This document shows, in pieces, positions 1,794 to 41,622 of a DNA stretch of 46,862 nt. Every line of letters begins with the position of its first letter. The stretch's first letter is position 1. Under the pieces are notes generated by a model, which did not search any database, had not been told where the DNA came from, and saw only the letters and a list, made by a program, of their open reading frames with translations. The DNA is from Gammaproteobacteria bacterium (GTDB taxonomy: Bacteria > Pseudomonadota > Gammaproteobacteria > GCA-002705445 > GCA-002716945), in the NCBI GenBank assembly GCA_965660795.1, contig CBFIBF010000005.1, forward strand, positions 1 through 46,862, written 5' to 3'. Position numbers and translations under genes: made by a program.

Positions 1794-4700
1794 ATGCAAG
1801 AAATATTAAATATGTTCAAAAAAAATAATAATGATAAGAAATTTGATCACATAAAAATTTCACTCGCATCTGCTGATTTGATGAGATCCTGGTCTTATGG
1901 TGAAGTAAAGAAACCTGAGACGATTAATTACAGAACTTTTAAACCTGAGAGGGACGGACTGTTTTGCGCTAAAATTTTTGGACCAGTAAAAGATTATGAA
2001 TGCTTATGCGGTAAATATAAAAGACTCAAGCATAGAGGCGTAGTATGTGAAAAATGCGGAGTTGAAGTTACATTATCAAAAGTAAGAAGAGAGAGAATGG
2101 GGCATATTGAACTTGCAGCACCTGTTGCTCATATATGGTTTTTAAGATCGCTACCATCAAGAATTGGATTGATGATGGATATGACGCTCAGACAAATTGA
2201 AAAAGTCTTGTATTTTGAAGCTTTTATAGTCATAGATGGAGGACTAACTCCTTATGAAACTGGAAGCCTTCTCAATGAAGAAATGTACACTCATGCTATT
2301 GAAGAATATGGCAATGAAATTAAAGTTGGGATGGGCGCAGAAGCAATAAAAGAATTACTAATGAAAATTGATTTAAAAAAATCATATGAAGACCTTGCTG
2401 AAGAGATAAAAGTTACAAAGTCTCAAGCAAAAAATAAAAGAAATATTAAAAGACTAAAATTGCTCGAATCTTTTATAAAATCTGGCAATAAACCAGAATG
2501 GATGATTCTTGATGTGCTACCAATTTTACCTCCTGATCTAAGACCATTAGTACCACTGGAGGGAGGACGCTTTGCTACATCAGATCTTAATGATTTATAT
2601 CGTAGAGTAATAAACAGGAATAACAGGCTTAAAAGATTACTAGAGTTAAAAGCGCCTGATATTATCGTTAGAAATGAAAAAAGAATGCTGCAAGAATCCG
2701 TAGATGCTCTTTTAGACAATGGTAGAAGAGGAAGAGCAATAACAGGTACCAACAAAAGGCCACTTAAATCACTTGCTGATATGATTAAAGGCAAGGGCGG
2801 AAGATTCAGACAAAACCTATTAGGTAAAAGGGTAGACTATTCAGGAAGGTCGGTTATTGTTGTTGGTCCTACACTGAAACTTCACCAATGTGGTATACCT
2901 AAGAAAATGGCTTTAGAGTTATTCAAGCCACACATTTTCGGAAAACTTCAATTAAGAGGCATAACCACAACAATTAAATCTGCTAAAAAAGTAGTAGAAA
3001 AAGAGGGAGAAGAGGTTTGGGATATTTTAGAGCAAATAACAAAAGAGTACCCGGTTTTATTAAACAGAGCACCGACATTACATAGGCTTGGTATTCAAGC
3101 ATTTGAGCCTGTATTAATCGAAGGTAAAGCTATTCAATTACATCCTCTAGTGTGTGCCGCGTTTAATGCAGATTTTGACGGGGACCAGATGGCTGTACAT
3201 GTTCCTTTATCCGTTGAAGCACAAACAGAAGCACGTGTGCTTATGATGGCCACGAACAATATTTTATCACCCTCAAATGGGAGCCCAATTATAGTACCTT
3301 CACAAGATATGGTTTTGGGAATTTATTACATGTCAAGAGAAAAACCTGGCTGTAAAGGTGAAGGCATGATTTTCGCGGATGTCGACGAAGTATCTAGAGC
3401 ATACCAATCAAAGATAATAGACATGCACGCAAAAATAAAAGTCATGATGAATGTCACTGAGTATAATGATGATGCGCTAACTCAAAAAAATAAGATAGTA
3501 GAAACAACTACGGGCAGAGCACTCATATCACAAATATTGCCGAAAAATATTCCTTACTCTTACATTGACCAAGACTTAAATAAAAAAGCAATATCAAAAT
3601 TATTTGACGTCTCTTATCGTCTAGCTGGGCTAAAAGAGACAGTTCTTTTTGCTGACAACATTAAAAACATGGGATTTAAATACTCTACTCTTGCAGGTGT
3701 CTCAATTGGCGTTGATGATATGGTAATTCCAAAAGAGAAGGTAACGATTACAGCAAAAGCAGAAAAAGAAGTTAAAGAAATAGAGAAACAGTATAACTCT
3801 GGATTGCTTACAGCTGGAGAGCGATATAATAAAGTTGTAGATATTTGGTCACATACTAACGATAAAGTTTCTCAAGCAATGATGAAGCAGCTGGGAACAG
3901 AAACAACTAAAGTTTCTGGTGGTAAAAAAGTTGAGCATAAATCATTCAACTCGATTTATATGATGGCTGACTCTGGAGCTAGAGGGTCTGCTGCACAAAT
4001 AAGGCAATTATCCGGAATGAGAGGATTAATGGCTAAACCCGATGGATCAATTATCGAAACACCAATTACTGCAAACTTTAGAGAGGGACTGGATGTAATG
4101 CAGTATTTTATTTCAACACATGGCGCTCGAAAAGGTCTTGCTGATACTGCTCTTAAAACTGCAAACTCTGGTTACCTAACCAGAAGATTAGTGGATGTTT
4201 CTCAAGATTTAGTTGTGACAGAAGATGATTGCGGTACGGATAATGGCATACTAATGAAGCCTTTGATTGAAGGTGGTGATATTGTTGAACCACTTAATGA
4301 GAGAGTGCTCGGCAGAACATTGCTTCGTGATTTAGTGAATCCAAAAACCAATGAACTTATATTAGCTAAAGATACTCTACTAGATGAAAATAACGTATCT
4401 TTGTTAGAACAAAATGCTATTGATGAGGTTTGGGTAAGATCTGTAATTACATGCGATATTAGACATGGCGTTTGCGCTAAGTGTTATGGAAGAGATCTTG
4501 CTAAAGGAAGACAAGTTAGCATTGGAGAAGCAGTTGGAGTAGTTGCCGCGCAATCTATTGGTGAACCTGGCACTCAGCTTACAATGAGAACATTCCATAT
4601 TGGCGGAGCAGCATCCAGAGCCGTCGCAGCTAACAGCATAGAGGTAAAAAATTCTGGGGTAATCAGATATCATAATCTCAAGACAGTTGTAAATACTCAA

Positions 4701-6939: not shown

Positions 6940-9039
6940 ATGGCTAGAACAACAGAATTAACTCATTATCGCAACATTGGAATAATGGCACATATAGATG
7001 CAGGTAAAACAACTACAACAGAAAGAATACTCTATTACACTGGTGTTTCACATAAAATAGGTGAAGTACATGATGGAGCTGCAACTATGGACTGGATGGA
7101 GCAAGAGCAAGAGAGAGGTATCACAATTACTTCTGCAGCTACGACCTGTTTTTGGGAGGGCAGCACCGGTCAATATGATCAACATAGAATAAATATTATA
7201 GATACACCGGGACACGTTGATTTCACAATTGAAGTTGAGAGATCATTGAGAGTCCTTGATGGTGCTGTAGCAGTTTTCTGCGCTGTTGGTGGAGTTGAAC
7301 CACAATCTGAGACTGTCTGGAGACAAGCTAATAAATATAGTGTTCCTAGAATGGCATTTGTAAACAAGATGGACCGAGCGGGAGCAGATTTCTTTAGAGT
7401 CGTCGACCAGATCAAAACTAGACTAGGGTCTAAACCAGTTCCACTTCAAGTACCTATTGGGTCTGAAGATAACTTCAAGGGAGTTGTAGATCTAATTAGT
7501 ATGAAAGCTATTATTTGGGATGAAGAATCAAAAGGCATGAAATTTGACACCGTAGATATACCAGATGATCTTAAGGTTAAATCTGATGAGTTACATGAGC
7601 AGCTGGTTGAAACAGCAGCTGAAGCAAATGAAGAGCTAATGGATGAATATTTAAATAATGGAGAATTATCAAAAGAAAAAATAATTGAAGGATTGAGGTT
7701 ACAAACTCTTGCTAATGAAATAGTACTTGTAACCTGCGGTACAGCTTTCAAAAATAAAGGAGTACAGGCAATGCTTGATGCTGTGATTGAATTTATGCCT
7801 TCTCCTTTAGATGTTCCTGCGATTAAAGGTATAAACGATGATTCTGAAGGCTCTGAAGGTGTTAGAAATTCCTCTGATGATGAGCCATTTGCATCTCTTG
7901 CATTTAAGATTGCAACAGATCCTTTTGTGGGTACACTCGCATTTTTTAGAGTATATTCAGGCGTCTTAAAAGCAGGTGATACTGTATATAATGCTGTCAC
8001 ACAGAAAAAAGAGAGAATTGGCAGAATTTTACAAATGCACTCAAACTCTAGAGAGGAAATAAAAGAAGTTAGAGCAGGAGATATTGCTGCTGCAGTTGGA
8101 TTGAAAACAGTCACTACAGGTGATACTCTTTGCGATCCATCTTCTGTAATTACGTTAGAAAGAATGGAGTTTCCTGAGCCAGTTATTTCTATTGCAGTAG
8201 AACCTAAAACAAAAGATGACCAAGAGAAAATGGGATTAGCTCTTGGAAAACTTGCTCAAGAAGATCCTTCATTTCGAGTATCCACAGATGAAGAATCTAA
8301 CCAAACTATTATTTCTGGTATGGGAGAGTTACATTTGGATATCATTGTAGATAGAATGAAAAGAGAGTTTAATGTTGAAGCAACAATAGGTAAACCTCAA
8401 GTTGCTTATAGAGAAACCATCAGAAAACCTATCGAACAGGAAGCTAAATACGTCAAACAAAGTGGTGGTAAAGGTCAATATGGACATGTTTGGCTTAAAA
8501 TAGAGCCGCAAGAGCCTGGTAAAGGATATGAATTTGTAAACGAAATTGTTGGTGGCGCAATACCAAAAGAATTTATTGGACCTGTAGATAAAGGTGTAAT
8601 CGAACAAATGGAAAATGGGGTCATAGGCGGATATCCTGTTGTAGATGTGAAAGTGACATTATTTGATGGTTCATTTCATGATGTAGATTCCAGTGAAGTC
8701 GCCTTCAAAGTTGCTGGATCACAAGCTTTTAAAGAAGGAGCAAAAAAAGCGAATCCAGTATTGTTGGAACCCGTCATGAAAGTAGAAGCTGTAACTCCAG
8801 GAGATTATCTTGGTGATGTTACTGGAGACTTAAATAGAAGACGAGGAATAATCCAAGGTATGGAGGAAACAGTTGTAGGTAATATCATAAAAGCTGAAGT
8901 ACCTCTGTCTGAAATGTTTGGTTATGCTACTGATCTAAGATCCATGACTCAAGGAAGAGCAACATATACTATGGAATTTGAGAAGTATGCAGAAATTCCA
9001 TCAAACATAGCTGAAGGATTAATAGAGAAGGCTTCATAA
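6940..9039 (+). CDS. fusA: Elongation factor G
   Basis: 699 aa. GTPase motifs [21 protein letters not shown]. Full-length EF-G architecture. Confidence 0.98.
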
Positions 9040-9368
9040 TGGCAACAAAGAAAGCAAAAAATACGCAAAACATTAGGATTCGTCTTAAAACTTTTGATCA
9101 TAAACTCATTGATGCATCTTCGAAAGAGATAGTTGAGACAGCAAAAAGAACGGGTGCAAGGGTAATAGGACCCATACCTCTACCTACCAAAAAAGAGAGA
9201 TACACAATACTCGTTTCACCACATGTAGACAAAGATGCACGAGATCAGTATGAAATAAGAACACACAAAAGACTCATGGATATCTTAGAGCCTACAGACA
9301 AGACGGTTGATGCTCTCATGAAACTTGATCTTGCAGCAGGCGTCGATGTTCAGATAGAACTTAGCTGA
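9039..9368 (+). CDS. rpsJ: 30S ribosomal protein S10
   Basis: 109 aa. [14 protein letters not shown]...[14 protein letters not shown]. Its ATG shares one nt with the fusA TAA (TAATG). Confidence 0.97.
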
Positions 9369-31887: not shown

Positions 31888-34291
31888 GGTTTATCATCCA
31901 CAGGATATAGAAAAAATTGCTCAGAAAGAATGGCTGCGTAATCAAAATAATAACAATAAACTTCTAGATTCTAAAAATAAATATTACGTATTGAGCATGT
32001 TCCCTTATCCAAGTGGAAAACTTCACATGGGCCATGTAAGAAATTATACCATTGGTGACGTAATAACTAGGTCGCATAAGATGATTGGAAAGAATGTTTT
32101 CCAACCCATGGGTTGGGATGCCTTCGGTTTGCCTGCTGAGAATGCAGCCATTAAAAACAAAGTTCATCCTGAAGAATGGACTAAGAAAAATATTCTCCAT
32201 ATGAAATCTCAACTTGAAAACATTGGCATTCTATACGATTGGGACAATGAGATATCTACTGCAGACCCAGGTTATTTCAAGTGGGAGCAATGGTTTTTTC
32301 TACAATTACTAAAAAAAGGTTTGGTTTACAGGAAATTATCTGAAGTAAACTGGGACCCAGTTGATAAAACTGTTTTAGCAAATGAGCAAGTCATTGATGG
32401 AAAAGGCTGGAGATCTGGCGCAATTGTCGAGAGAAAAAAAATTCCTCAATGGTTCTTAAAGATTACCTCTTTTGCTGAACAATTATTAAACGATATTGAT
32501 AAGTTAAAAGGTTGGCCAGAATCTGTTAAAGTAATGCAAAAAAATTGGATTGGAAAGTCCAAAGGGCTGAATATTCATTTCGGGTCAGATAACTATGGAA
32601 CATTCACGGCATTCACAACCAGGCCTGACACACTCTTTGGTGTGACATATGTTGCAATCAGCATCAATCATAATCTTTCTCTTGATTTAGCTGAAAAAAA
32701 TCAAAATATTAAAAACTTCATCACAAAGTATCAAAAGCTTAAGCTCTCTGAAGAGTCCTCAGCAAAGCTCGAAAAGGATGGAATATATACTGGTATAAAC
32801 TGCATTCATCCTATAACTAAAAAAAATATACCAATATGGATTGCAAACTATGTCTTAGATAGTTATGGAACGGGTGTTGTTATGGGTGTTCCCGCACATG
32901 ATTCAAGAGATTTTGAGTTTGCAGAAAAGTTTAAATTGGAGATTATTCAAGTTATTGATGATGAAGAAGGTAAAAAACTACCTTATTTAGGTGATGGCAA
33001 ATTAATCAATTCACATGAGTTTGATAAGATTCATTCTCAAGAAGCTAAAATGCAAATATCAAAATACTGTACTGAGCAACATATTGGAGAAGAACTAATC
33101 ACCTATCGTCTTAGAGATTGGGGTATATCAAGACAGAGATATTGGGGAACCCCAATACCTGTTTTTTATCTTGATGATGGATCTGTCCATCCCATTCCGG
33201 AGGATCAGCTTCCTGTTGAATTACCAAAAGATATAGATTTAAATGGGGAAGGTAATCCTCTCGATAAATGTGAATCTTGGAAGAATATAACTTGCCCTTA
33301 TACTGGACAAAAAGCGACTAGAGAAACAGATACTTTTGATACTTTCTTTGAATCGTCCTGGTATTATTTAAGATTTCTAGATCCTAAAAATAACACTAAA
33401 ATGATGGATGACAAATATAAATCATGGTTACCTGTAGATCAGTATGTTGGCGGAATTGAACATGCGATTCTCCATCTCTTGTATGCTAGATTTTTCAACA
33501 AACTCTTAAAAGACGATGGTTTGATTGATAATGATGAACCCTTTATGTCATTGTTGTCTCAAGGCATGGTTCTTAAAGATGGATCAAAAATGTCAAAATC
33601 AAAAGGCAATACAATTGATCCTGATGAAATTATCGGAAAATATGGTGCAGATACTATTCGACTATTTATCTTATTCGCAGCGCCACCAGAACAAAACCTA
33701 GAGTGGTCAGACTCTGGAATTGAGGGGGGTTTTAAATTTTTGAAAAGGTTGTGGAATTTGACCCACCTTATCCACACATCATATGATCAAAATAATGATA
33801 AAGACATGCTCATACAATTAAAACATAACGAGGTAATAGACAAAGTAACAAATGATATTTTCAAAAGAAAATCTTATAACACTGCAATAGCAACAATTAT
33901 GGAATTTTATAACAGTCTAGCTAAAGCAATAGATAATAAAACAATTTCGGATAAAACAGCTAAAAAATGTATTAGCACTATTGCTAAACTACTTTATCCA
34001 ATTACACCTCATATATGCTATTCAATTTTATCAGTGATAGAATTTAATCAAGCTTTAAATCCCAGTTGGCCAGATAAAATTGAAGACATTGACTGCGACC
34101 AAGAAGTGCAAATAATTATTCAAATCAATGGTAAACTGAGAAGTAAAGTAATGGCACCAAAAGGAAGCAATGAGGATGTTATTATGAAAATAGCATCAAG
34201 TGACAAAAAAACTATAGAATATTTAACGAATGCAAATGTCATTAAAACAATATATATACCGAATAAACTTATCAACTATGTAATTAAATGA
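31880..34291 (+). CDS. leuS: Leucine--tRNA ligase
   Basis: 803 aa. HIGH-type motif (PSGKLHMGH) and KMSKS. Collinear with bacterial LeuRS. Confidence 0.98.
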   Translation: MNKVYHPQDIEKIAQKEWLRNQNNNNKLLDSKNKYYVLSMFPYPSGKLHMGHVRNYTIGDVITRSHKMIGKNVFQPMGWDAFGLPAENAAIKNKVHPEEWTKKNILHMKSQLENIGILYDWDNEISTADPGYFKWEQWFFLQLLKKGLVYRKLSEVNWDPVDKTVLANEQVIDGKGWRSGAIVERKKIPQWFLKITSFAEQLLNDIDKLKGWPESVKVMQKNWIGKSKGLNIHFGSDNYGTFTAFTTRPDTLFGVTYVAISINHNLSLDLAEKNQNIKNFITKYQKLKLSEESSAKLEKDGIYTGINCIHPITKKNIPIWIANYVLDSYGTGVVMGVPAHDSRDFEFAEKFKLEIIQVIDDEEGKKLPYLGDGKLINSHEFDKIHSQEAKMQISKYCTEQHIGEELITYRLRDWGISRQRYWGTPIPVFYLDDGSVHPIPEDQLPVELPKDIDLNGEGNPLDKCESWKNITCPYTGQKATRETDTFDTFFESSWYYLRFLDPKNNTKMMDDKYKSWLPVDQYVGGIEHAILHLLYARFFNKLLKDDGLIDNDEPFMSLLSQGMVLKDGSKMSKSKGNTIDPDEIIGKYGADTIRLFILFAAPPEQNLEWSDSGIEGGFKFLKRLWNLTHLIHTSYDQNNDKDMLIQLKHNEVIDKVTNDIFKRKSYNTAIATIMEFYNSLAKAIDNKTISDKTAKKCISTIAKLLYPITPHICYSILSVIEFNQALNPSWPDKIEDIDCDQEVQIIIQINGKLRSKVMAPKGSNEDVIMKIASSDKKTIEYLTNANVIKTIYIPNKLINYVIK

Positions 34292-34785
34292 GAAAACTTA
34301 CTCAAATCTTCATCTTATTATCAACGACCATAATCATGTCATCATGTGGTTACCAGTTAAGAGATAGTATAAATACAGATGGACTAAATCACGTTTTAAT
34401 TGCTGGTAGTTCGGAAAATGAAATTGTCAGGTTACTCCAACAAAAATTACCGGGTTCGAAATTAATTAGAAATGTAAGTGAAGAAAAATACCCTATTATA
34501 AAAATAATAAATATTAAAACTTCAAAAAGACAGTTATCAGTGAATTCATCTGGGAGAGCTGATGAATATGAGATAAGCAAAACCCTAGAGTATCAATTAA
34601 TATTACGCGATGGTGTCAAACAAACTGGTAACCTTTCTGCAAACGCATCATATGATTTCGATGAGTCACAAATGCAGGGAACCAAAGAGAAAGAAATCAT
34701 TGCTAACGATTCAATCACTAGAGCTTTAACAAGAAAGTTGGTTTTAAGACTTAAGTCAGCATTGAAAGCATCTAGCAATCAATAA
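34288..34785 (+). CDS. lptE: LPS-assembly lipoprotein LptE
   Basis: 165 aa. Signal peptide with lipobox IMSS|CGYQLR. Canonical position directly after leuS (ATGA overlap). Confidence 0.88.
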   Translation: MRKLTQIFILLSTTIIMSSCGYQLRDSINTDGLNHVLIAGSSENEIVRLLQQKLPGSKLIRNVSEEKYPIIKIINIKTSKRQLSVNSSGRADEYEISKTLEYQLILRDGVKQTGNLSANASYDFDESQMQGTKEKEIIANDSITRALTRKLVLRLKSALKASSNQ

Positions 34786-35467
34786 TAGGGGCGTATGGTT
34801 CAATTCTTGTTTTATCATGTTCGTGCATTCTATATTGCGTAAAATCTTTTAGGTTATTAAAATTAAAAAATGGATTACCTTGAATTTCTTCTTTAAGGGT
34901 TGAATTTCTTTTTATTGAATAATTATGCCCAGGCATAATGACAGTCTCTTTAGAGAGATTTTCTTTTAAATGCTTAAGTGATTTATACATCTCTTCTGGA
35001 CTACCTCCATGAAGGTCGCATCTGCCACATCCAAATACGAATAATGTATCACCCGCAATAAGATTACCATCAAATGAATAGCAGCATGAGCCGGGAGTAT
35101 GGCCAGGTGTATGTAGAGAGGAAATTTCTGTTGATCCTAATATTATTTTGTCATTTGAATTTGTTGTCAGTAAATTATCATACTCTTTAGACCAAAAGTC
35201 TGCTTCAAGTTTATTTATATGTATTGGAATATCATATTTCTTAAGTATTATATCAATCGAATTTACATGATCATGATGACTATGAGTGAGTAAAATTTTA
35301 CGTAACCTAAGCTTCTTTCTGTCTATGAAATTTAGCACTTCCGTTAAGTCCCATGCAGGATCAACTATTGCGGTTTCCCTAGTTTTATTGTCCCATATTA
35401 GATAAACAATATTTAACATAGGACCAACATCAAATGTTTTAACAGACAATGTATTTATAGCTTGCAT
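34772..35467 (-). CDS. MBL-fold metallo-hydrolase (glyoxalase II / YcbL-like)
   Basis: 231 aa. THSHHDH (HxHxDH), downstream TPGHTPG, GDTLF and GHNY metal/substrate motifs. Its 3' end overlaps the lptE 3' end by 14 nt. Confidence 0.85.
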   Translation of the reverse strand: MQAINTLSVKTFDVGPMLNIVYLIWDNKTRETAIVDPAWDLTEVLNFIDRKKLRLRKILLTHSHHDHVNSIDIILKKYDIPIHINKLEADFWSKEYDNLLTTNSNDKIILGSTEISSLHTPGHTPGSCCYSFDGNLIAGDTLFVFGCGRCDLHGGSPEEMYKSLKHLKENLSKETVIMPGHNYSIKRNSTLKEEIQGNPFFNFNNLKDFTQYRMHEHDKTRIEPYAPIIDC

Positions 35468-35502
35468 ACATTATCATTATAATATAACTTGATTGAATAT
35501 TT

Positions 35503-35793
35503 ATGACTGAAATAGTACTAAAACCAGAGTTACTAAAAAACCTTCAAAAAGTTCTTGTAGATTATGAACCAAAAAATGAGGATCCTATTTTAGCATCCCA
35601 ATATTTATCTGCCGTGGTAGGATCAATTGTCGCAACAGCTGAAATACCCAAGAAAGATAGAGATGATATTCTTAAACAGTTAATTGATTTTACACAATAT
35701 GTCTATGATCAACAGACGGAAACTCTTTCAGAAGAAAGCAAAGATTCGACATCATCAACAGATGAAGCCTATGGCGTCTGGAAACCAGAATAA
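35503..35793 (+). CDS. Hypothetical small acidic protein
   Basis: 96-aa ORF with no family I recognise and a Ser/Asp/Glu-rich C-terminal third. Codon usage looks like its neighbours. There is no obvious SD. Confidence 0.5.
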   Translation: MTEIVLKPELLKNLQKVLVDYEPKNEDPILASQYLSAVVGSIVATAEIPKKDRDDILKQLIDFTQYVYDQQTETLSEESKDSTSSTDEAYGVWKPE

Positions 35794-35796
35794 CCA

Positions 35797-36810
35797 CTAA
35801 TATTTTAAAATATCTTTTATAACAGCAGGACCTTTATAGACAAGCCCAGTATAAAGCTGTATTAAATCAGCTCCATTTTTAAATTTTTCATTAGCAGACT
35901 CCCATGAGTCTATTCCACCTACACCGATAATAGTTTTATCCTTACTAATTTTATTATTAACTTGTTTAAGTATCTCATTGGATTTATTTAGTAGAGGCTT
36001 ACCACTCAGCCCACCTTGTATGTTATTAAATTTTTCTGAAATTTCTGATTTGTCTATAGTAGTATTCGTACAAATAACCCCATCAACTTCATATTTATCT
36101 ATAAGCATTGATAATTCAGAGATAGTATCATTGGAAATATCAGGAGCGATTTTTATAACTAAAGGAGTATATTTTTTATATACCTTTCTTAGATTATTAT
36201 GAAGCTTCTTTATTGAGCACAATAATTCCTCCATGTTTTCACCTTTCTGTAAATCTCTTAAGTTTTTAGTATTCGGCGAAGAAACATTTAAGGTTATATA
36301 ATCAGCTACAGCATATGCTTTTCTTAAACAGTACTCGTAATCATGAAAAGCATCTTGAATTCTTGTAGTTGCATTTTTACCAATATTAATTCCAATTGGA
36401 ATTTTTTTACTAAATTTTTTTATTTGATCAATTGCATAATCTATACCTTTATTATTAAAACCCAAATGGTTAATTATCGCTTCATCATCAACTATCCTAA
36501 ATACCCTTGGCTTAGGATTACCAAGTTGTGGTTTGGGAGTAAGAGTACCAACTTCGATAAAACCAAAACCTATATTTGAAATAAAATTCAGATAGTCCGC
36601 ATTTTTGTCAAATCCAGCAGCAAGTCCAACTGGATTATCAAAAACAATATCAAATTGTTTAGTTTTATTTTTTATGATCTTTTTATGCAAAAGTTTACCG
36701 ATATAGCTTCGGTATATTAGATCCAAACTTGCAAGAGATATATCATGAGCTTTTTCTGGGTCTAGTTTAAATGCAATATTTTTAAAAAGCTGAAAAATTA
36801 ATTTATTCAA
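35797..36810 (-). CDS. pyrD: Dihydroorotate dehydrogenase (quinone), class 2 (TTG start)
   Basis: 337 aa. The N-terminus (FKLDPEKAHD) aligns with E. coli PyrD (FQLDPERAHE). GLAAGFDKN, GFIEVGT, NVSSPNT. The only in-frame start near the N-terminus is TTG at 36810. Confidence 0.94.
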   Translation of the reverse strand: MNKLIFQLFKNIAFKLDPEKAHDISLASLDLIYRSYIGKLLHKKIIKNKTKQFDIVFDNPVGLAAGFDKNADYLNFISNIGFGFIEVGTLTPKPQLGNPKPRVFRIVDDEAIINHLGFNNKGIDYAIDQIKKFSKKIPIGINIGKNATTRIQDAFHDYEYCLRKAYAVADYITLNVSSPNTKNLRDLQKGENMEELLCSIKKLHNNLRKVYKKYTPLVIKIAPDISNDTISELSMLIDKYEVDGVICTNTTIDKSEISEKFNNIQGGLSGKPLLNKSNEILKQVNNKISKDKTIIGVGGIDSWESANEKFKNGADLIQLYTGLVYKGPAVIKDILKY

Positions 36811-36824
36811 AACATATACTCAAA

Positions 36825-36843
36825 GATAACAAGAATCATTATC
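36825..36843. promoter_or_regulatory. Fur box (16/19 match to GATAATGATAATCATTATC)
   Basis: GATAACAAGAATCATTATC. The right half-site is a perfect 9/9, the centre matches, and the left half is 6/9. It lies 15-33 nt upstream of the pyrD start codon, in the pyrD/rubrerythrin divergent region. Confidence 0.6.
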
Positions 36844-36869
36844 ATCTTATCTATAATAGCAGAAAATAT

Positions 36870-36907
36870 TTGACATATATATTTTATAAATTTAGAATCA
36901 TTCTAAA
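36870..36907 (+). promoter_or_regulatory. Rubrerythrin-operon promoter (TTGACA-17-TAGAAT) overlapped by the perfect palindrome TTTAGAATCATTCTAAA (Irr ICE-like / Fur-family 7-1-7 operator)
   Basis: -35 at 36870-36875, -10 at 36893-36898, palindrome at 36891-36907. SD AGGAG at 36917-36921 and ATG at 36928. Confidence 0.65.
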
Positions 36908-36927
36908 TAATAATTTAGGAGAATATT

Positions 36928-37347
36928 ATGAGCTTAAAAGGTTCAAAAACAGAACAAAACCTAAAAGATGCATTTGCTGGTGAGTCACAAGCGAATAGAC
37001 GTTATCTTTACTTTGCGGCAAAAGCTGATGTAGAAGGACAAAACGACATAGCTACCGTATTTCGTTCAACAGCTGAAGGAGAAACTGGGCATGCTCATGG
37101 TCACCTTGAGTATCTTGAAAAAGAATGTGGTGACCCAGCAACAGGTGAACCTATCGGTGATAGCGTATCTAACTTGAAAGCAGCTATAGCTGGAGAAACT
37201 CATGAGTATACAGATATGTATCCTGGAATGGCAAAGACAGCTAGAGATGAAGGCCATGATGAAATAGCTGACTGGTTTGAAACTCTTGCTAAAGCTGAAA
37301 GATCTCATGCTAATCGTTTTACAAAAGCATTGGAATCAATCTCATAA
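36928..37347 (+). CDS. Rubrerythrin-family diiron protein without a rubredoxin domain (erythrin-type)
   Basis: 139 aa. [26 protein letters not shown]. Two E...ExxH ligand sets (ETGH, ERSH). No CxxC pairs. Confidence 0.9.
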
Positions 37348-37353
37348 CTTTAA

Positions 37354-37386
37354 GTTCTAGTGAGCGACTATATCGCTCACTAGAGC
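37354..37386 (+). other. GC-rich stem-loop between the rubrerythrin and Fe-S genes (possible attenuator or processing/stability element)
   Basis: CTAGTGAGCGA (37357-37367), 5-nt loop, TCGCTCACTAG (37373-37383). Extendable to 14 bp with one G-U pair. Only a short TTTT lies 8 nt downstream, so it is not a canonical intrinsic terminator. Confidence 0.4.
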
Positions 37387-37405
37387 AGAGAATTTTGGAA
37401 ATAGA

Positions 37406-38728
37406 ATGGACGTAACTAATAAAAACACAACCACAGAAGGCGGATTAGAAAAACCAACCAGGCATATAATTGATTGGAAAAATCCTGACTTTTTAAATGA
37501 AGAAAAGTATGAGCAAGAGCTTAGAAGGGTTGCTGACGCATGTCACGGATGTAGACGTTGTGTTAGCTTATGTAACTCATTTCCAAGCCTGTTTGATTTG
37601 ATAGATAATTCTGAGACTTTTGAAGTTGATGGTGTAGCTTACGAACAGTTTAGTTCTGTAGTTGATCATTGCTATCTTTGTGATTTATGCTTTATGACGA
37701 AGTGCCCTTATGTACCACCACATGAATGGGAAATAGATTTTCCTCATCTTATGTTGAGGGGTAAAGCTATAAAGGATTCAAAAAAGAAAACAACATTAAG
37801 AGACAAAATCCTTTCATCTACAGACTTGCTCGGTAGATTATTTTCAAGACCACTAATTTCGAGTTTTGTTAACTTTTTTAATGGTTTGAAACTTTTCAGA
37901 AAGTTACTAACCTTATTTGGTATTCATCAAAACGCTAAACTACCTAAATTTGTGTCTAAGACTGCTAAAAATTTAGAGCTCATGAACCATGTTGATAATG
38001 CATCACACAAAGTTGCTATATATACAACTTGTTATCATAATTATAACGAACCTGGTGTAATTAAAGATTTCTATGACATTTTAAAACATAACAATGTGAC
38101 TGTAGATATAATCTCTCAAGACAACTGTTGTGGTATGCCTAAGCTTGAACTGGGAAATATTACTAAAGTGGAAGAGATGATGAAAAATAATCTCCCGCAG
38201 TTTAAAAAATATGTAGATGATGGTTATCTAATAATAGCACCCATACCTTCTTGCGTATTAATGTATAAACAGGAGTTGCCATTACTATTTCCCGACAACC
38301 AAGATCTTATTAATGTATCACAATCATTTAGAGACCCATTTGAATTTTTGAATATGCTAAATGATAAAGGAACATTAAAAAAAGATTTCAAAGCAAAACT
38401 TGGTAATATTTCTTATCAGGTCGCATGTCACCAAAGGGTACAAAACTTTGGGATGTTGACAAAAAAAATTCTCGAATTAATACCAGGAACAAAAGTTGAT
38501 GCATTAGAACGTTGTTCTGGACATGATGGTACGTATGGCGTCAAGTTAGAAACACATGATATTGCAATCAAAATTGCCAAACCCATAACTAAAGCATTCA
38601 AAGATGCAAATTTTGATAGCTTTACGAGCGATTGTTCGTTAGCTGCTCATCATATTGAAAATTCATTGGGTAACATGCAGGCGCCTGAACATCCAATTAG
38701 TCTAATTAAAAAAGCATACGGAATATAA
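37406..38728 (+). CDS. HdrD/GlpC-like iron-sulfur oxidoreductase (2x[4Fe-4S] ferredoxin motifs plus two CCG domains)
   Basis: 440 aa. CHGCRRCVSLC and CYLCDLCFMTKCP. Cysteine-rich CCG-type segments (TTCYH..NCCGMP..PSCV and VACHQ..RCSGHDG..SDCS). Confidence 0.85.
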   Translation: MDVTNKNTTTEGGLEKPTRHIIDWKNPDFLNEEKYEQELRRVADACHGCRRCVSLCNSFPSLFDLIDNSETFEVDGVAYEQFSSVVDHCYLCDLCFMTKCPYVPPHEWEIDFPHLMLRGKAIKDSKKKTTLRDKILSSTDLLGRLFSRPLISSFVNFFNGLKLFRKLLTLFGIHQNAKLPKFVSKTAKNLELMNHVDNASHKVAIYTTCYHNYNEPGVIKDFYDILKHNNVTVDIISQDNCCGMPKLELGNITKVEEMMKNNLPQFKKYVDDGYLIIAPIPSCVLMYKQELPLLFPDNQDLINVSQSFRDPFEFLNMLNDKGTLKKDFKAKLGNISYQVACHQRVQNFGMLTKKILELIPGTKVDALERCSGHDGTYGVKLETHDIAIKIAKPITKAFKDANFDSFTSDCSLAAHHIENSLGNMQAPEHPISLIKKAYGI

Positions 38729-38730
38729 AA

Positions 38731-39312
38731 ATGAAATTAGAAATATCAAACTTACTATCGCTTGAAGAGTATGATTCTGAAAGAGAAAATTTAAAAAAAG
38801 ATGTTATCAATCATAAAAAAAATAGGACTGTAAGTATAGGAGACAACATTGTTCTTATATTTGAGGACTTCAAAACAATTAAATATCAAGTACAAGAGAT
38901 GCTTCGTATTGAGAAAATATTTAAAAAAGATGAAATACAAGAAGAAATTGATGCCTACAATCCTCTTATACCAGATGGTACGAATCTGAAAGCGACTATG
39001 TTAATAATGTATCCTGATGTAGAAGTAAGGAGACAAATGCTTCTTAAACTTCATGACATTGAAAACAATATTTGGATATCTGTTGGTCAAAAAAAGGTTA
39101 TTGCTTTTGCAGACGAAGATTTAGATAGAAGCACTGATGAAAAAACATCCGCCGTACACTTTTTAAGGTTTCAGTTCACTCATGACGAGGTAACTGAATT
39201 TCTATCCAGCGATAAAATAGTAGTCGGGGTTAACCACAAAGAGTATGATAAAGAAATAATTCTTGATAAGGCTGTTAAAGAAAGTCTTGAAAAAGATTTT
39301 AAGTCTAGTTAA
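38731..39312 (+). CDS. DUF3501-family protein (function unknown)
   Basis: 193 aa. The pattern EMLRIEKIF...EIDAYNPLIPDGTNLKATMLI...EKTSAVHFLRFQF matches my recollection of DUF3501 proteins that accompany rubrerythrin / Fe-S gene pairs. Starts 2 nt after the upstream gene. Confidence 0.7.
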   Translation: MKLEISNLLSLEEYDSERENLKKDVINHKKNRTVSIGDNIVLIFEDFKTIKYQVQEMLRIEKIFKKDEIQEEIDAYNPLIPDGTNLKATMLIMYPDVEVRRQMLLKLHDIENNIWISVGQKKVIAFADEDLDRSTDEKTSAVHFLRFQFTHDEVTEFLSSDKIVVGVNHKEYDKEIILDKAVKESLEKDFKSS

Positions 39313-39315
39313 TTT

Positions 39316-39714
39316 TTACTTATTTCTAACTTTAATAAGTACTTCTGTGCTTTCAATTTGCAAGTTTTTAGGCAATTCAGGAAAATCTGAAAATACTACT
39401 TGGTCATGATCTACATCAGTTAGTGTACTCATAGTCGTGTTGTATAAATGATGATGGTTATCTAAATTTGTATCATAAAATTTTAAATCATTTTCAATGT
39501 TGATAGTTTTTAGCATTCCTTTTGACTCCAATAAAGATAAAGTATTGTAAATAGTTGCCATGGAAATGTTTAAGCGCTTCTTGTCTGCTACAGAGATAAG
39601 GTCAGCAGCTGTAAAATGTTGTTTTTTAGAAAAAATTAACTTAGCTAAATCAACCCTCTGTTTTGTAGGGGTAACATTCAGTTTTCTGTATATTGTTTCG
39701 TACTTATTTTCCAT
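39316..39714 (-). CDS. Fur-family transcriptional regulator, cysteine-free Irr-like subtype
   Basis: 132 aa. Winged-helix segment (TPTKQRVDLAKLIF...ISMATIYNTL..LE.KGML), then FYDTNLDNHHHLY and C-terminal FPELPKNLQIESTEVLIKVRNK. No Cys at all, so no CxxC zinc site. Collinear with rhizobial Irr as I recall it. Confidence 0.8.
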   Translation of the reverse strand: MENKYETIYRKLNVTPTKQRVDLAKLIFSKKQHFTAADLISVADKKRLNISMATIYNTLSLLESKGMLKTINIENDLKFYDTNLDNHHHLYNTTMSTLTDVDHDQVVFSDFPELPKNLQIESTEVLIKVRNK

Positions 39715-39754
39715 ATACGAGAATTATAATATATTAATATACAAATCTTAATAT

Positions 39755-40642
39755 CTAATTATGTAATTTTTCTAATATTTTATGTATGGCTGATGAATCT
39801 AAATCTGATAAATTTTCTTGTTCTGCTAATTTCATTAATTTCTTTACATGATTTAAACCTTTTAAATTAATTTCCAATTGCTTTGTAAGGTTTTTGGCTA
39901 TCTTTAAATCCTTATGATGGAGAGACAGTTTAAATCCGGGGTTAAAGTCTGAATTAATCATTCTCAAGCCATGGATATCGAGTATTTTGCTATTAGCATA
40001 TCCTGCTAGGAGCGCCTCTCTAATTAGTCTAGGGTCAATATTTGATTTTTTCGCAATATTTATGATTTCACTTATTGATTGAATAGTTTGTGCAACTAAT
40101 ATTTGATTGCACGCCTTGCATACCTGACCTGAGCCACTATCACCGATATATGTAATTTTTTTGCCAACAGCGGCAAGAACATATTTGATTTTTTGATATA
40201 TCTTTTTGTCACCACCAACCATAATTGATAAAGCGCCAGATATCGCACCAGCCTCTCCACCAGATACAGGCGCATCTATGAAATATGAATTCTTTGCACT
40301 TAAGCTAGCATTTATCTCTCTAGCGCCTTGAGGTGAGATAGTGCTCATATCTATAACAATATATCCTTCTCTTATATTATTTATCAAGCCTCTCTTACCT
40401 GTTACTATTTGTTTTACATCTTTGGTATTTGGAAGATTGGTTATAGATAATGATGTGTAGTTAGGAATTTCTTCGATAGCAGAAATAAAAATTCCTCCTG
40501 CAGTTACAACCTCATCAATTATATTTTTTTTTCTAGCAAAGAAGTAAACCTCAAAATTATTTTTGATAAGATTTAAAACCATGGGTTTACCCATGATACC
40601 TAAGCCAATGAAACCAACTTTATATTTTTTACCACTTTTCAT
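39755..40642 (-). CDS. NAD(P)-dependent beta-hydroxyacid dehydrogenase (3-hydroxyisobutyrate / tartronate-semialdehyde reductase family)
   Basis: 295 aa. Rossmann motif VGFIGLGIMG, DAPVSGG, and the catalytic-Lys region GSGQVCKACNQ. Confidence 0.88.
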   Translation of the reverse strand: MKSGKKYKVGFIGLGIMGKPMVLNLIKNNFEVYFFARKKNIIDEVVTAGGIFISAIEEIPNYTSLSITNLPNTKDVKQIVTGKRGLINNIREGYIVIDMSTISPQGAREINASLSAKNSYFIDAPVSGGEAGAISGALSIMVGGDKKIYQKIKYVLAAVGKKITYIGDSGSGQVCKACNQILVAQTIQSISEIINIAKKSNIDPRLIREALLAGYANSKILDIHGLRMINSDFNPGFKLSLHHKDLKIAKNLTKQLEINLKGLNHVKKLMKLAEQENLSDLDSSAIHKILEKLHN

Positions 40643-40644
40643 TA

Positions 40645-41622
40645 ATGATCTATAGTATAATTGAGTATATGATATTTGATTACGTTAAATTCAAAAAATC
40701 TCAACTTTCTACTGAATCACCACTATACTTCATTCACGGAAATCCGAGAAATATAAGTAATGAAATTGAGCATGATATTTTAAATTTCTTTCAAAAATTG
40801 GGCTACAAATCGATGAACTATGTTATTGATGATGATTCCCAAATACAAAAACTTGAGAGTTTATTCAATGAACAATCATTGTTTAATGAGAACAAAATTA
40901 TTATATTGAATATACTATCGAACTCTATTTCTATTAAAATGAAAAGATTTATAGAGACAAGGGTTGAAATATGCACTGATGACAAAATTATCTTAAAATT
41001 AGACCGACAAGCATCATCATTCAAAAAAACTAATTTTTATAAGAAGGTTAGTCAATATGCTTGTGTAATTGAAATATTTGAATTAAAAAACGAAGTTCTC
41101 AAACAATGGTCTCTCAACAAATGTAAAGTTAATAAGGTAGATATAAGCGACTCTGATCTCGAGGAACTTATGAATTCTAATTTTAATAACAGTTTATCAA
41201 TTGCTCAGAATATATACATTCAAAGTCTAATGAATAGCAATCAGCTGTTTCATGGACAAGAGGGGTCTAAGTATTCTGAATATGATTTAGTGGACATGTT
41301 TTTAAGCAGGAATACTCTCGAGTTCATTCGAGCTAGCAACTACCTCAGATCAAATGATACGTCTTTGTCATATATAATATTTCTTTTAAATTCTGAATTA
41401 GAAAAACTTTACTCATTAATTAAACCAGTGAAATATAGACCATATATTCCATCATTCCTATTAAATAAATATTTACAAATCTCTAAAAAATTCTCTCCGG
41501 AAAAAATATTATCTGCAATAAATAATATTGCTACACTTGATGCAAATTCAAAGTACAATCTTAAAAAGTCTAATCCATGGGAGTCTTTTAACTCTATGTT
41601 TTTAGATTTAATGAAAAGTTAG
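40645..41622 (+). CDS. holA: DNA polymerase III delta subunit
   Basis: 325 aa (317 aa if it starts at the ATG at 40669). Divergent, but collinear with E. coli HolA (N-terminal ..LYFIHGN..; length; the position that normally follows lptE). The start is uncertain. Confidence 0.75.
   Translation: MIYSIIEYMIFDYVKFKKSQLSTESPLYFIHGNPRNISNEIEHDILNFFQKLGYKSMNYVIDDDSQIQKLESLFNEQSLFNENKIIILNILSNSISIKMKRFIETRVEICTDDKIILKLDRQASSFKKTNFYKKVSQYACVIEIFELKNEVLKQWSLNKCKVNKVDISDSDLEELMNSNFNNSLSIAQNIYIQSLMNSNQLFHGQEGSKYSEYDLVDMFLSRNTLEFIRASNYLRSNDTSLSYIIFLLNSELEKLYSLIKPVKYRPYIPSFLLNKYLQISKKFSPEKILSAINNIATLDANSKYNLKKSNPWESFNSMFLDLMKS

Follow-up and report, generated by a model that had tools for sequence, protein, structure and literature searches.

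A rubrerythrin–RFO–DUF3501 operon with an Irr-type operator in an uncultured marine bacterium: a candidate self-contained peroxide reductase

RESULTS

Three genes and a compact control region

We analysed a stretch of DNA from a Gammaproteobacteria bacterium (contig CBFIBF010000005.1; 46,862 nt, hereafter the window, whose positions serve as coordinates) that carries three consecutive genes on the same strand, encoding a rubredoxin-less 'aerobic-type' rubrerythrin (RBR), an iron-sulphur (Fe-S) protein resembling GlpC and HdrD (RFO) and a member of the DUF3501 family. The listing of open reading frames (ORFs) and a reading of the sequence placed 58 nt between RBR and RFO and 2 nt between RFO and DUF3501, and agreed exactly with the coordinates, gaps, hairpin and operon-like layout of an original prediction made from the sequence alone. 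The genes, the elements upstream of them and the convergent regulator gene are listed in Table 1. The gene upstream of RBR is pyrD, in divergent orientation, and the base composition of the operon is like that of the neighbouring genes. No transmembrane segment was predicted in any of the three proteins, and an Rfam search of the window matched no RNA family.

Table 1. Features of the RBR–RFO–DUF3501 locus (positions in the window)
Feature	Position	Strand	Supporting result
Fur-box-like element GATAACAAGAATCATTATC	36825..36843	.	16/19 identity to classical Fur box
Sigma-70-type promoter: TTGACA (36870-36875), 17-nt spacer, TAGAAT (36893-36898)	36870..36898	+	11/12 consensus positions
Iron Control Element (ICE, Irr box) TTTAGAA-TCA-TTCTAAA = TTTAGAATCATTCTAAA	36891..36907	.	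0 mismatches to published consensus
RBR, rubredoxin-less 'aerobic-type' rubrerythrin, diiron four-helix-bundle protein, 139 aa	36928..37347	+	Pfam Rubrerythrin 5e-29
RBR–RFO intergenic gap, 58 nt	37348-37405		
Intercistronic hairpin, perfect 14-bp stem + 5-nt loop	37354..37386	+	Folding, z -5.1 to -5.8
RFO, GlpC/HdrD-like Fe-S protein, 440 aa	37406..38728	+	Pfam CCG 1.7e-13
DUF3501 protein, 193 aa	38731..39312	+	PF12007 2.1e-64, full length
Irr-like Fur-family regulator, 132 aa, convergent with operon	39316..39714	-	Pfam FUR 1.7e-17

The window locus belongs to a trio that has already been described: its RBR has the complete set of diiron ligands, a DUF3501 gene is co-located, and the gene between them encodes a CCG protein of COG0247 that is a sister of GlpC. 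Cardenas, Quatrini and Holmes defined and named the aerobic-type RBR/RFO/DUF3501 system in 2016, surveyed 4461 finished genomes, of which 185 had all three genes and 25 had only RBR and DUF3501, and proposed that RFO substitutes for the lost rubredoxin domain as supplier of electrons (PMC5114695). The trio was later reported by Gray et al. (2020) as mitochondrion-targeted in Andalucia and other protists, co-inherited into mitochondria (PMC7050145). The original prediction had treated the three genes as uncharacterised, which does not hold, since the trio was described, named and surveyed in 2016 and structures and peroxidase activity are known for proteins of the RBR type; its statement that no activity had been demonstrated for the trio stood, in that our literature search found no assay of the complete trio.

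RBR is a conserved single-domain diiron protein

RBR carries the motifs E52-T-G-H55 and E124-R-S-H127, has a single cysteine and contains neither a rubredoxin domain nor a CxxC pair, as predicted for a rubrerythrin with ETGH and ERSH ligand motifs and without the rubredoxin CxxC domain. The diiron ligand positions (E19, E52, H55, E90, E93, E124 and H127) are at least 97% conserved among 73 orthologues. Searches against the Protein Data Bank (PDB) matched Burkholderia pseudomallei Rbr (4di0/9onm, 1e-72), sulerythrin (1j30, 1e-48) and classical rubrerythrins (1e-28), and the window protein is ~80% identical to B. pseudomallei Rbr (PDB 4di0/8fuh/9onm), for which promiscuous binding of Fe, Mn and Co is on record. 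RBR scored 132.9 bits with NF045767, the NCBIfam model for classical rubrerythrin, short of its cut-off of 200, and aligned only to positions 3-145 of the 194 in the profile.

Proteins of this lineage have been assayed. With NADPH/FNR as surrogate donor, the ferriperoxin of Hydrogenobacter thermophilus reduced both H2O2 and organic hydroperoxides at a Km of 1-1.6 mM; its disruptant showed no aerobic growth (PMC3317640). Sulerythrin of Sulfolobus tokodaii is credited with peroxidase activity in a passage of PMC12154734 that cites earlier work.

Across the trio loci surveyed below (numbered L005 and so on), identity to the window protein is 75-100% for RBR, 44-80% for RFO and 46-74% for DUF3501. 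Judged by these identities, RBR is much more constrained than its two partners. In a separate comparison of the window with L005, the RBR proteins (encoded at 5198-5614 in L005) are 100% identical, against 80% for RFO, 73% for DUF3501 and 83% for the Irr-like protein, which points to unusually strong purifying selection on the diiron protein.

RFO combines two ferredoxin motifs with one complete and one degenerate CCG domain

RFO contains two ferredoxin-type [4Fe-4S] motifs, CHGCRRCVSLC at residues 46-56 (C46/49/52/56) and CYLCDLCFMTKCP at residues 89-101 (C89/92/95/100), followed by a full CCG domain (C209, C241-C242-G243 and C283) that Pfam detected over residues 203-286; matches to the Pfam 4Fe-4S dicluster domains were sub-threshold. 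The second CCG-type domain is degenerate (C341-H342 ... C370-S371-G372-H373 ... D409-C410), with three cysteines, not four, and no Pfam CCG match, yet it is invariant in 69 orthologues. Fifteen cysteines are invariant in the same set, eight in the ferredoxin motifs and 4+3 in the CCG domains. Thus, the description of gene 2 in the original prediction as an HdrD/GlpC-like protein with two ferredoxin motifs and two CCG domains stood for the ferredoxin motifs and for one full CCG domain; the second is degenerate and specific to this family.

The best NCBIfam model for RFO was GlpC (5e-60), with scores below both cut-offs (203 against 278 bits for NF008369 and 148 against 280 bits for TIGR03379). 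In an alignment, RFO is 28% identical to Escherichia coli GlpC and differs from it by an N-terminal extension of ~40 residues, by two insertions (YVPPHEW and PLLFPDN) and by the family-specific C-S-G-H at the place where the second domain of GlpC carries a normal CCG. No relative of RFO was found in the PDB, either by sequence or by profile search. An AlphaFold model of RFO reached a mean predicted local distance difference test score (pLDDT) of 72.5, with values of 80-94 in the CCG half. Compared with known and modelled structures by Foldseek, the model matched a LutA model best (7e-7), then mycobacterial EtfD (7e-6 over 400 columns) and the HdrB chains of three Hdr complexes, 8rwn_B (4e-4), 5odc_B (2e-3) and 7bkb_B (6e-3), so that a double CCG fold is present. 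The HdrB structure paper reportedly describes two complete C-Xn-CC-Xn-C-X2-C motifs with five cysteines each; this HdrB-type set is not found in RFO, which has C209/C241-C242/C283 and C341/C370/C410 with H342 and H373. No gene for the Hdr partners HdrE, HdrA or HdrC was found near RFO.

DUF3501 is matched in the PDB by its own family alone

The assignment of gene 3 to DUF3501 was upheld by the profile search over the full length of the protein. The sequence contains no cysteine and has invariant residues at R18, E45, Q53 and E56 and invariant or near-invariant ones at E61, E72, Y76 and H169, as well as a conserved yet flexible acidic loop (residues 128-141). Its match in the PDB is 3fjv (E 2e-43), a structural-genomics structure titled 'novel protein of unknown function', and an AlphaFold2 model (pLDDT 94.9) superposes on 3fjv with a template modelling score of 0.93. 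A fold search of the PDB returned nothing beyond 3fjv at E <0.01. Since DUF3501 is matched there by its own family alone, its function cannot be read from its fold.

A hairpin separates RBR from a tightly coupled RFO–DUF3501 pair

The intercistronic hairpin starts 7 nt past the RBR stop codon and has a predicted free energy of about -24 kcal/mol; two folds gave z = -5.1 and -5.8, and none of 200 shuffled sequences was equally stable. The RBR–RFO spacers of the surveyed loci were too diverged for an RNAalifold alignment and were folded singly. A stable GC-rich hairpin of unrelated sequence occupies the same position in six of them (L005, L007, L085, L018, L039 and L066), with z values of -2.3 to -7.0 across these loci and the window, and is weak in L006 and L022. 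A terminator scan detected no canonical U-tract terminator at the hairpin. RFO and DUF3501, 2 nt apart in the window, overlap in L085, and DUF3501 is probably translationally coupled to RFO. The retention of the hairpin's position but not its sequence, together with the tight RFO–DUF3501 coupling, suggests that RBR is made in excess over a stoichiometric RFO–DUF3501 pair.

The RBR promoter overlaps a perfect Iron Control Element

The promoter upstream of RBR (rbr) is the best sigma-70-type site in the region. Its -10 hexamer lies inside an extended palindrome, ATTTAGAAT-C-ATTCTAAAT, at positions 36890-36908, which contains the ICE. The consensus of this element, 5'-TTTAGAA-N3-TTCTAAA-3', is quoted in Rodionov et al. 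2006 (PMC1698941). The iron-type operator of the original prediction is a perfect ICE, found once in the window against 0.01 matches expected by chance. The link between an Irr operator and a rubrerythrin gene is not new: it had been predicted in 2006 for Pelagibacter ubique, whose minimal Irr regulon was predicted to have its rubrerythrin gene as sole target (PMC1698941).

We aligned the pyrD–rbr spacer from seven members of the window's lineage, the proteins of which have diverged to 54-65% identity. The -35 hexamer and the ICE are invariant at a fixed spacing in all seven, and the central base of the ICE varies. In the spacer that separates the divergent genes pyrD and rbr, the Fur-box-like GATAACAAGAATCATTATC precedes the rbr -35 by about 27 nt and may serve either gene. 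It is the sole site in the window with three or fewer mismatches to the Fur box (0.12 expected); a related element, GAnAAnGAnAATCAnTnTTAT, occupies the same place in diverged lineage members.

A gene for an Irr-like protein is found at the same position, beyond DUF3501, in every member of the window's lineage. Among NCBIfam models, IrrA/Irr gave the best match, which spans the full length and at 108 bits falls short of the cut-offs (150/170); the scores for PerR and for Fur of the E. coli type were 78 and 17 bits. There are no cysteines in the protein, and residues 86-88 form an HHH motif. The Irr/ICE system is described in the literature as confined to Alphaproteobacteria, and our literature search found no report of it in any other class. 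Going by sequence, an Irr-like regulator with a canonical ICE may sit outside the Alphaproteobacteria here, if the gammaproteobacterial class of the window is right.

DUF3501 (+) and the irr-like gene (-) end 3 nt apart, stop codon to stop codon (39309-39320), and overlap in L085. A terminator scan of 36700-39800 found no terminator-like site. Read-through from the operon, if derepressed, would cross the irr-like gene in antisense and could act as a feedback loop.

The trio is kept in order under two kinds of regulation

For a wider view of the trio, a search of representative sequences at E <=1e-3 found 2254 DUF3501 clusters (50% identity), and a scan of one genome per GTDB species with a diverse DUF3501 alignment yielded 80 loci, mostly from Gamma- and Betaproteobacteria with a few from Alphaproteobacteria. 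Gene order was counted wherever the sequence extended 2.3 kb or more 5' of DUF3501, as it did in 67 loci. RBR, RFO and DUF3501 stand in this order on one strand in 63 of the 67, all from different species, which confirms the expected co-occurrence of the three families; the median spacing is 69 nt for RBR–RFO and 23 nt for RFO–DUF3501. Two loci have RBR and DUF3501 without an adjacent RFO (L033 and L054) and two have DUF3501 alone (L052 and L074), and no alternative partner was found in the latter. Fusions of RFO with DUF3501 have been reported in Nitrosomonas (PMC5114695). Two candidate fusions in our set, ORFs of 622 and 594 aa in L045 and L068, were rejected: they start in a frame other than that of RFO, at offsets of 65 and 185 nt, and we regard them as spurious open frames such as GC-rich DNA produces.

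Across the 14-kb loci, we clustered every ORF that lay up to 3.5 kb from the trio. The recurrent neighbours are housekeeping genes (obg, proB, rplU, proS and parE) and an OxyR-like gene; no ferredoxin, FNR, thioredoxin, glutaredoxin, flavoprotein, dehydrogenase or cytochrome b recurs within that distance. As no donor gene is recurrently linked, the trio looks self-contained and fed by a general cellular reductant.

An ICE-type search (TTTAGA-N5-TCTAAA, at most one mismatch in the 12 specified positions) of the 250 nt upstream of RBR gave 18 matches in 15,912 positions, distributed over 17 of 70 loci, compared with two matches in the other 849,078 positions of these loci. In genomes beyond the window's lineage, which include Thioalkalivibrio (with L066 from a cultured strain), Burkholderiales and Arenicellales among others, the usual form of the box is TTTAGAC-N3-GTCTAAA; the palindrome lies 48-133 nt 5' of RBR in L025, L034, L039, L048, L055, L058, L060, L065, L066, L070, L072, L078 and L082. 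No Fur or Irr gene was found within 7 kb of the ICE-type loci outside the lineage, even in a relaxed search. L035, from a gammaproteobacterial metagenome-assembled genome (MAG), has an Irr-like gene at 1898-2371 (-), convergent after DUF3501 and scoring 137 bits with IrrA; like the window protein, its product has no cysteine, an HHH motif and IrrA/Irr as top NCBIfam model.

In 12 loci from different species, an OxyR-like gene of the LysR family lies beside the trio, with OxyR as top NCBIfam model (222-338 bits, cut-off 329). It is divergent and immediately upstream of RBR in seven (L009, L013, L014, L017, L018, L053 and L063) and elsewhere beside the trio in five (L016, L031, L045, L075 and L076), suggesting peroxide-responsive control in those lineages. 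An ICE-type box and an adjacent OxyR-like gene were never found in the same locus. The two non-overlapping regulatory sets suggest that the controlling signals are iron/haem status and peroxide, and they lend independent contextual support to a peroxide-related role.

Neighbourhood and host

Extended synteny with the window recurs on contigs of 1.0-1.2 Mb from uncultured marine MAGs. The shared order is ybeY-corC-lnt-leuS-lptE-MBL-hyp-pyrD-RBR-RFO-DUF3501-irr-HIBDH-holA-proA-nadD-rsfS-yhdP, where MBL stands for a metallo-beta-lactamase-fold hydrolase, hyp for a hypothetical ORF and HIBDH for a 3-hydroxyisobutyrate-dehydrogenase-like gene. On the E. coli map leuS, lptE, holA and nadD are adjacent. 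Between lptE and holA the window's lineage has a block (34288-40645 in the window) comprising the MBL-fold hydrolase gene, a 96-aa ORF, pyrD, the trio, the irr-like gene and the 3-hydroxyisobutyrate-dehydrogenase-like gene; the 96-aa ORF (35503-35793) has no Pfam match and is kept within the window's lineage.

The source labels of lineage members are nearly all Gammaproteobacteria. One RFO record, P0470, is labelled 'Pelagibacterales bacterium', and its contigs (L085-L088) show the exact extended synteny of the window; it is probably a mis-binned or mislabelled public record. We considered on the strength of this one RFO whether the window might be SAR11, and set the idea aside because relatives with the same synteny are otherwise labelled Gammaproteobacteria. 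The window's S12 and EF-G are 85% and 71% identical to those of E. coli, and such identities, in a comparison with E. coli alone, fit a gammaproteobacterium better than an alphaproteobacterium. The start of a putative rpsJ (109 aa) shares one base, the final one, with the stop codon of fusA (9036-9042), and no tuf gene lies between the two; the usual order is rpsL-rpsG-fusA-tuf.

DISCUSSION

A possible division of labour within the trio

Starting from the gene identities, their conservation and co-localisation, the operator match and the peroxidase activity of RBR homologues, we propose that the trio is a self-contained peroxide reductase, and give this reading a probability of about 0.6. RBR would be the catalyst, its reduced diiron centre turning H2O2, and probably organic hydroperoxides, into water or the alcohol. 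Since RBR has no rubredoxin domain, RFO most likely takes over its re-reduction as a dedicated reductase: electrons would enter RFO at the CCG-type cluster site, pass two [4Fe-4S] clusters and reach the diiron centre of RBR. Such a path from an Fe-S/CCG protein to a diiron protein, which the original prediction also drew, agrees with proposals in the literature (PMC5114695; PMC12154734). The hydroxy acid offered in the original prediction as one possible electron donor lacks contextual support, since such a donor implies a partner dehydrogenase and the trio has no linked gene for one. Better candidates may be a low-molecular-weight thiol or a quinol, both common cellular reductants; each is thermodynamically reasonable, and each has a precedent in the CCG family. 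DUF3501 is most likely a structural adaptor or assembly subunit that joins RFO to the RBR dimer and is made in step with RFO, and the hairpin probably raises the amount of RBR above that of the other two proteins.

The -10 hexamer lies within an Irr-type operator, so that the Irr-like repressor encoded next to the trio would silence an operon that is expensive in iron, at 2 Fe per RBR and at least 12 Fe per RFO. Silencing would set in at low iron or haem and would otherwise be lifted.

Several points weigh against this proposal. Our literature search found no published experiment on RFO or DUF3501 in any organism. FNR alone sustains the activity of ferriperoxin in vitro, which means that turnover does not strictly require RFO. 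In Thermoproteales and in L033 and L054, RBR and DUF3501 occur without an adjacent RFO, which implies that DUF3501 is not solely an adaptor of RFO. The ferredoxin half of the RFO model, through which the electrons would pass, is of low confidence (pLDDT <50), owing to the shallower alignment that was used. On the regulatory side, iron limitation of P. ubique raised rbr mRNA 1.57-fold and the protein SAR11_0401, taken as DUF3501 through locus-tag adjacency alone, 2.2-fold, a rise that opposes simple repression by Irr; P. ubique HTCC1062 has all three genes (PMC5114695, Table S2). Finally, the experimental case of Irr binding to an ICE concerns Bradyrhizobium japonicum blr7895, which encodes an MbfA-type protein (erythrin-VIT1) and not this trio. 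We had considered blr7895 as proof of Irr control of the trio and rejected it: Bradyrhizobium is not in Table S2 of Cardenas et al., and its 'rubrerythrins' are 323-aa MbfA-type proteins. A literature search for blr7896/7897 or 3FJV found nothing.

Alternative roles

The regulatory survey invites a broader view, in which Irr/ICE control travels with the trio across Gamma- and Betaproteobacteria, ICE- and OxyR-type control are interchangeable, and the trio is a core iron-status effector of ferritin-less streamlined marine bacteria, coupling, for example, peroxide removal to the protection of iron or Fe-S centres. We put this forward as a tentative extension that is rather doubtful as it stands.

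A different reading would make the trio an iron-handling device instead of a peroxidase, with RBR as ferroxidase or iron buffer and with RFO and DUF3501 reducing, mobilising or delivering the iron. The iron could be supplied for Fe-S or haem synthesis or for the repair of iron centres, with the trio standing in for ferritin in streamlined marine genomes. The Irr-type operator beside a conserved Fur-box-like site would fit such a device, as would the P. ubique genome, reported to be without ferritin, in which rubrerythrin is the sole predicted Irr target and in which rbr mRNA and SAR11_0401 rise under iron limitation. The Glu, Gln, His and Tyr residues conserved in DUF3501 are of the metal-binding kind, and B. 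pseudomallei Rbr is promiscuous for Fe, Mn and Co. However, the RBR homologues are dimers with measured peroxidase activity, loss of ferriperoxin leads to an aerobic-growth defect, an OxyR-like regulator lies beside the trio in twelve other lineages, and the SAR11 paper assigns the ferroxidase role by annotation rather than by measurement. We consider an iron-handling role unlikely.

The turnover of ferriperoxin with NADPH/FNR alone raises another possibility, that FNR or a ferredoxin drives the reaction and that RFO and DUF3501 are factors for the maturation of RBR or the repair of an over-oxidised or demetallated site. That DUF3501 pairs with RBR where RFO is absent, that RBR is conserved at 75-100% compared with 44-80% for its partners and that the hairpin would leave RBR in excess are all in keeping with auxiliary factors of this sort. 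On the other hand, RFO, with 440 aa and three or more invariant Fe-S sites, would be costly for such a purpose, its architecture is that of the electron conduits GlpC, EtfD, HdrB and LutA, and the Km of ferriperoxin with its surrogate donor, ~1-1.6 mM, suggests that a better native partner exists. Maturation or repair thus seems improbable as the main function of RFO and DUF3501. The last alternative, that gene 2 encodes a plain GlpC or a GlcF/LutA-type subunit of a hydroxy-acid oxidase whose dehydrogenase lies elsewhere and that its placement is incidental, could appeal to GlpC as best NCBIfam match, to the JGI label 'glycerol-3-phosphate dehydrogenase subunit C' on relatives and to LutA as top Foldseek match, but it is essentially excluded by the combination of sub-threshold scores under both GlpC cut-offs, 28% identity, insertions of its own and the family-specific C-S-G-H with a fixed context, in which RBR and DUF3501 flank the gene in 63 of 67 species and no glpA/glpB, glcD/E or lutB/C genes lie nearby.

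Significance

The trio is widespread: hundreds of aerobic bacteria and archaea carry it, as do abundant ocean bacteria and the mitochondria of several protist lineages. To explain how a rubredoxin-less rubrerythrin is re-reduced in aerobes would fill a gap in the biochemistry of oxidative stress, a question posed in 2016 and again in 2025. To this question the window locus and its relatives add the invariant residues of RFO, including the C-S-G-H site, the lack of a linked donor gene and the orphan position of the DUF3501 fold in the PDB, together with a position-conserved hairpin and two mutually exclusive regulatory regimes, one with an ICE-type palindrome and the other with an OxyR-like gene. 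An Irr-like regulator and an ICE in an apparent gammaproteobacterium would be a modest surprise for specialists in iron regulation.

Comparison with known systems

Compared with the aerobic-type RBR/RFO/DUF3501 system as described in 2016 and 2020, the window copy has the same families in the same order and is not different in kind. It adds an adjacent Irr-like gene and a perfect ICE, which are not discussed in those descriptions, and its host is an uncultured, streamlined marine bacterium, probably a gammaproteobacterium. Ferriperoxin and sulerythrin belong to the same RBR lineage and are likewise single-domain, rubredoxin-less diiron proteins with peroxidase activity; they were assayed alone or with NADPH/FNR as surrogate, and the RFO gene of H. 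thermophilus is unlinked. The classical rubrerythrins of Desulfovibrio vulgaris and Pyrococcus furiosus share the helical bundle, the ligand set and the peroxidase function, but they have a C-terminal rubredoxin domain with an [Fe(Cys)4] centre, which the window RBR lacks, and they receive their electrons from rubredoxin and NAD(P)H:rubredoxin oxidoreductase.

With GlpC, HdrD, EtfD and LutA-GlcF, RFO has in common two [4Fe-4S] motifs followed by a module with the double CCG fold. In contrast to these proteins, it is encoded in an operon without a dehydrogenase, flavoprotein or cytochrome b, and its partner is a diiron protein. RFO has 4+3 cysteines in its CCG-type domains, whereas HdrB is said to have 5+5. 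With respect to the Irr/ICE regulon of Alphaproteobacteria, the window differs in that its host appears to be gammaproteobacterial and its regulator scores under the Irr cut-offs; as at repressed targets of that regulon, whose members include blr7895 and bfr of B. japonicum and, by prediction, rbr of P. ubique, the operator in the window overlaps the promoter.

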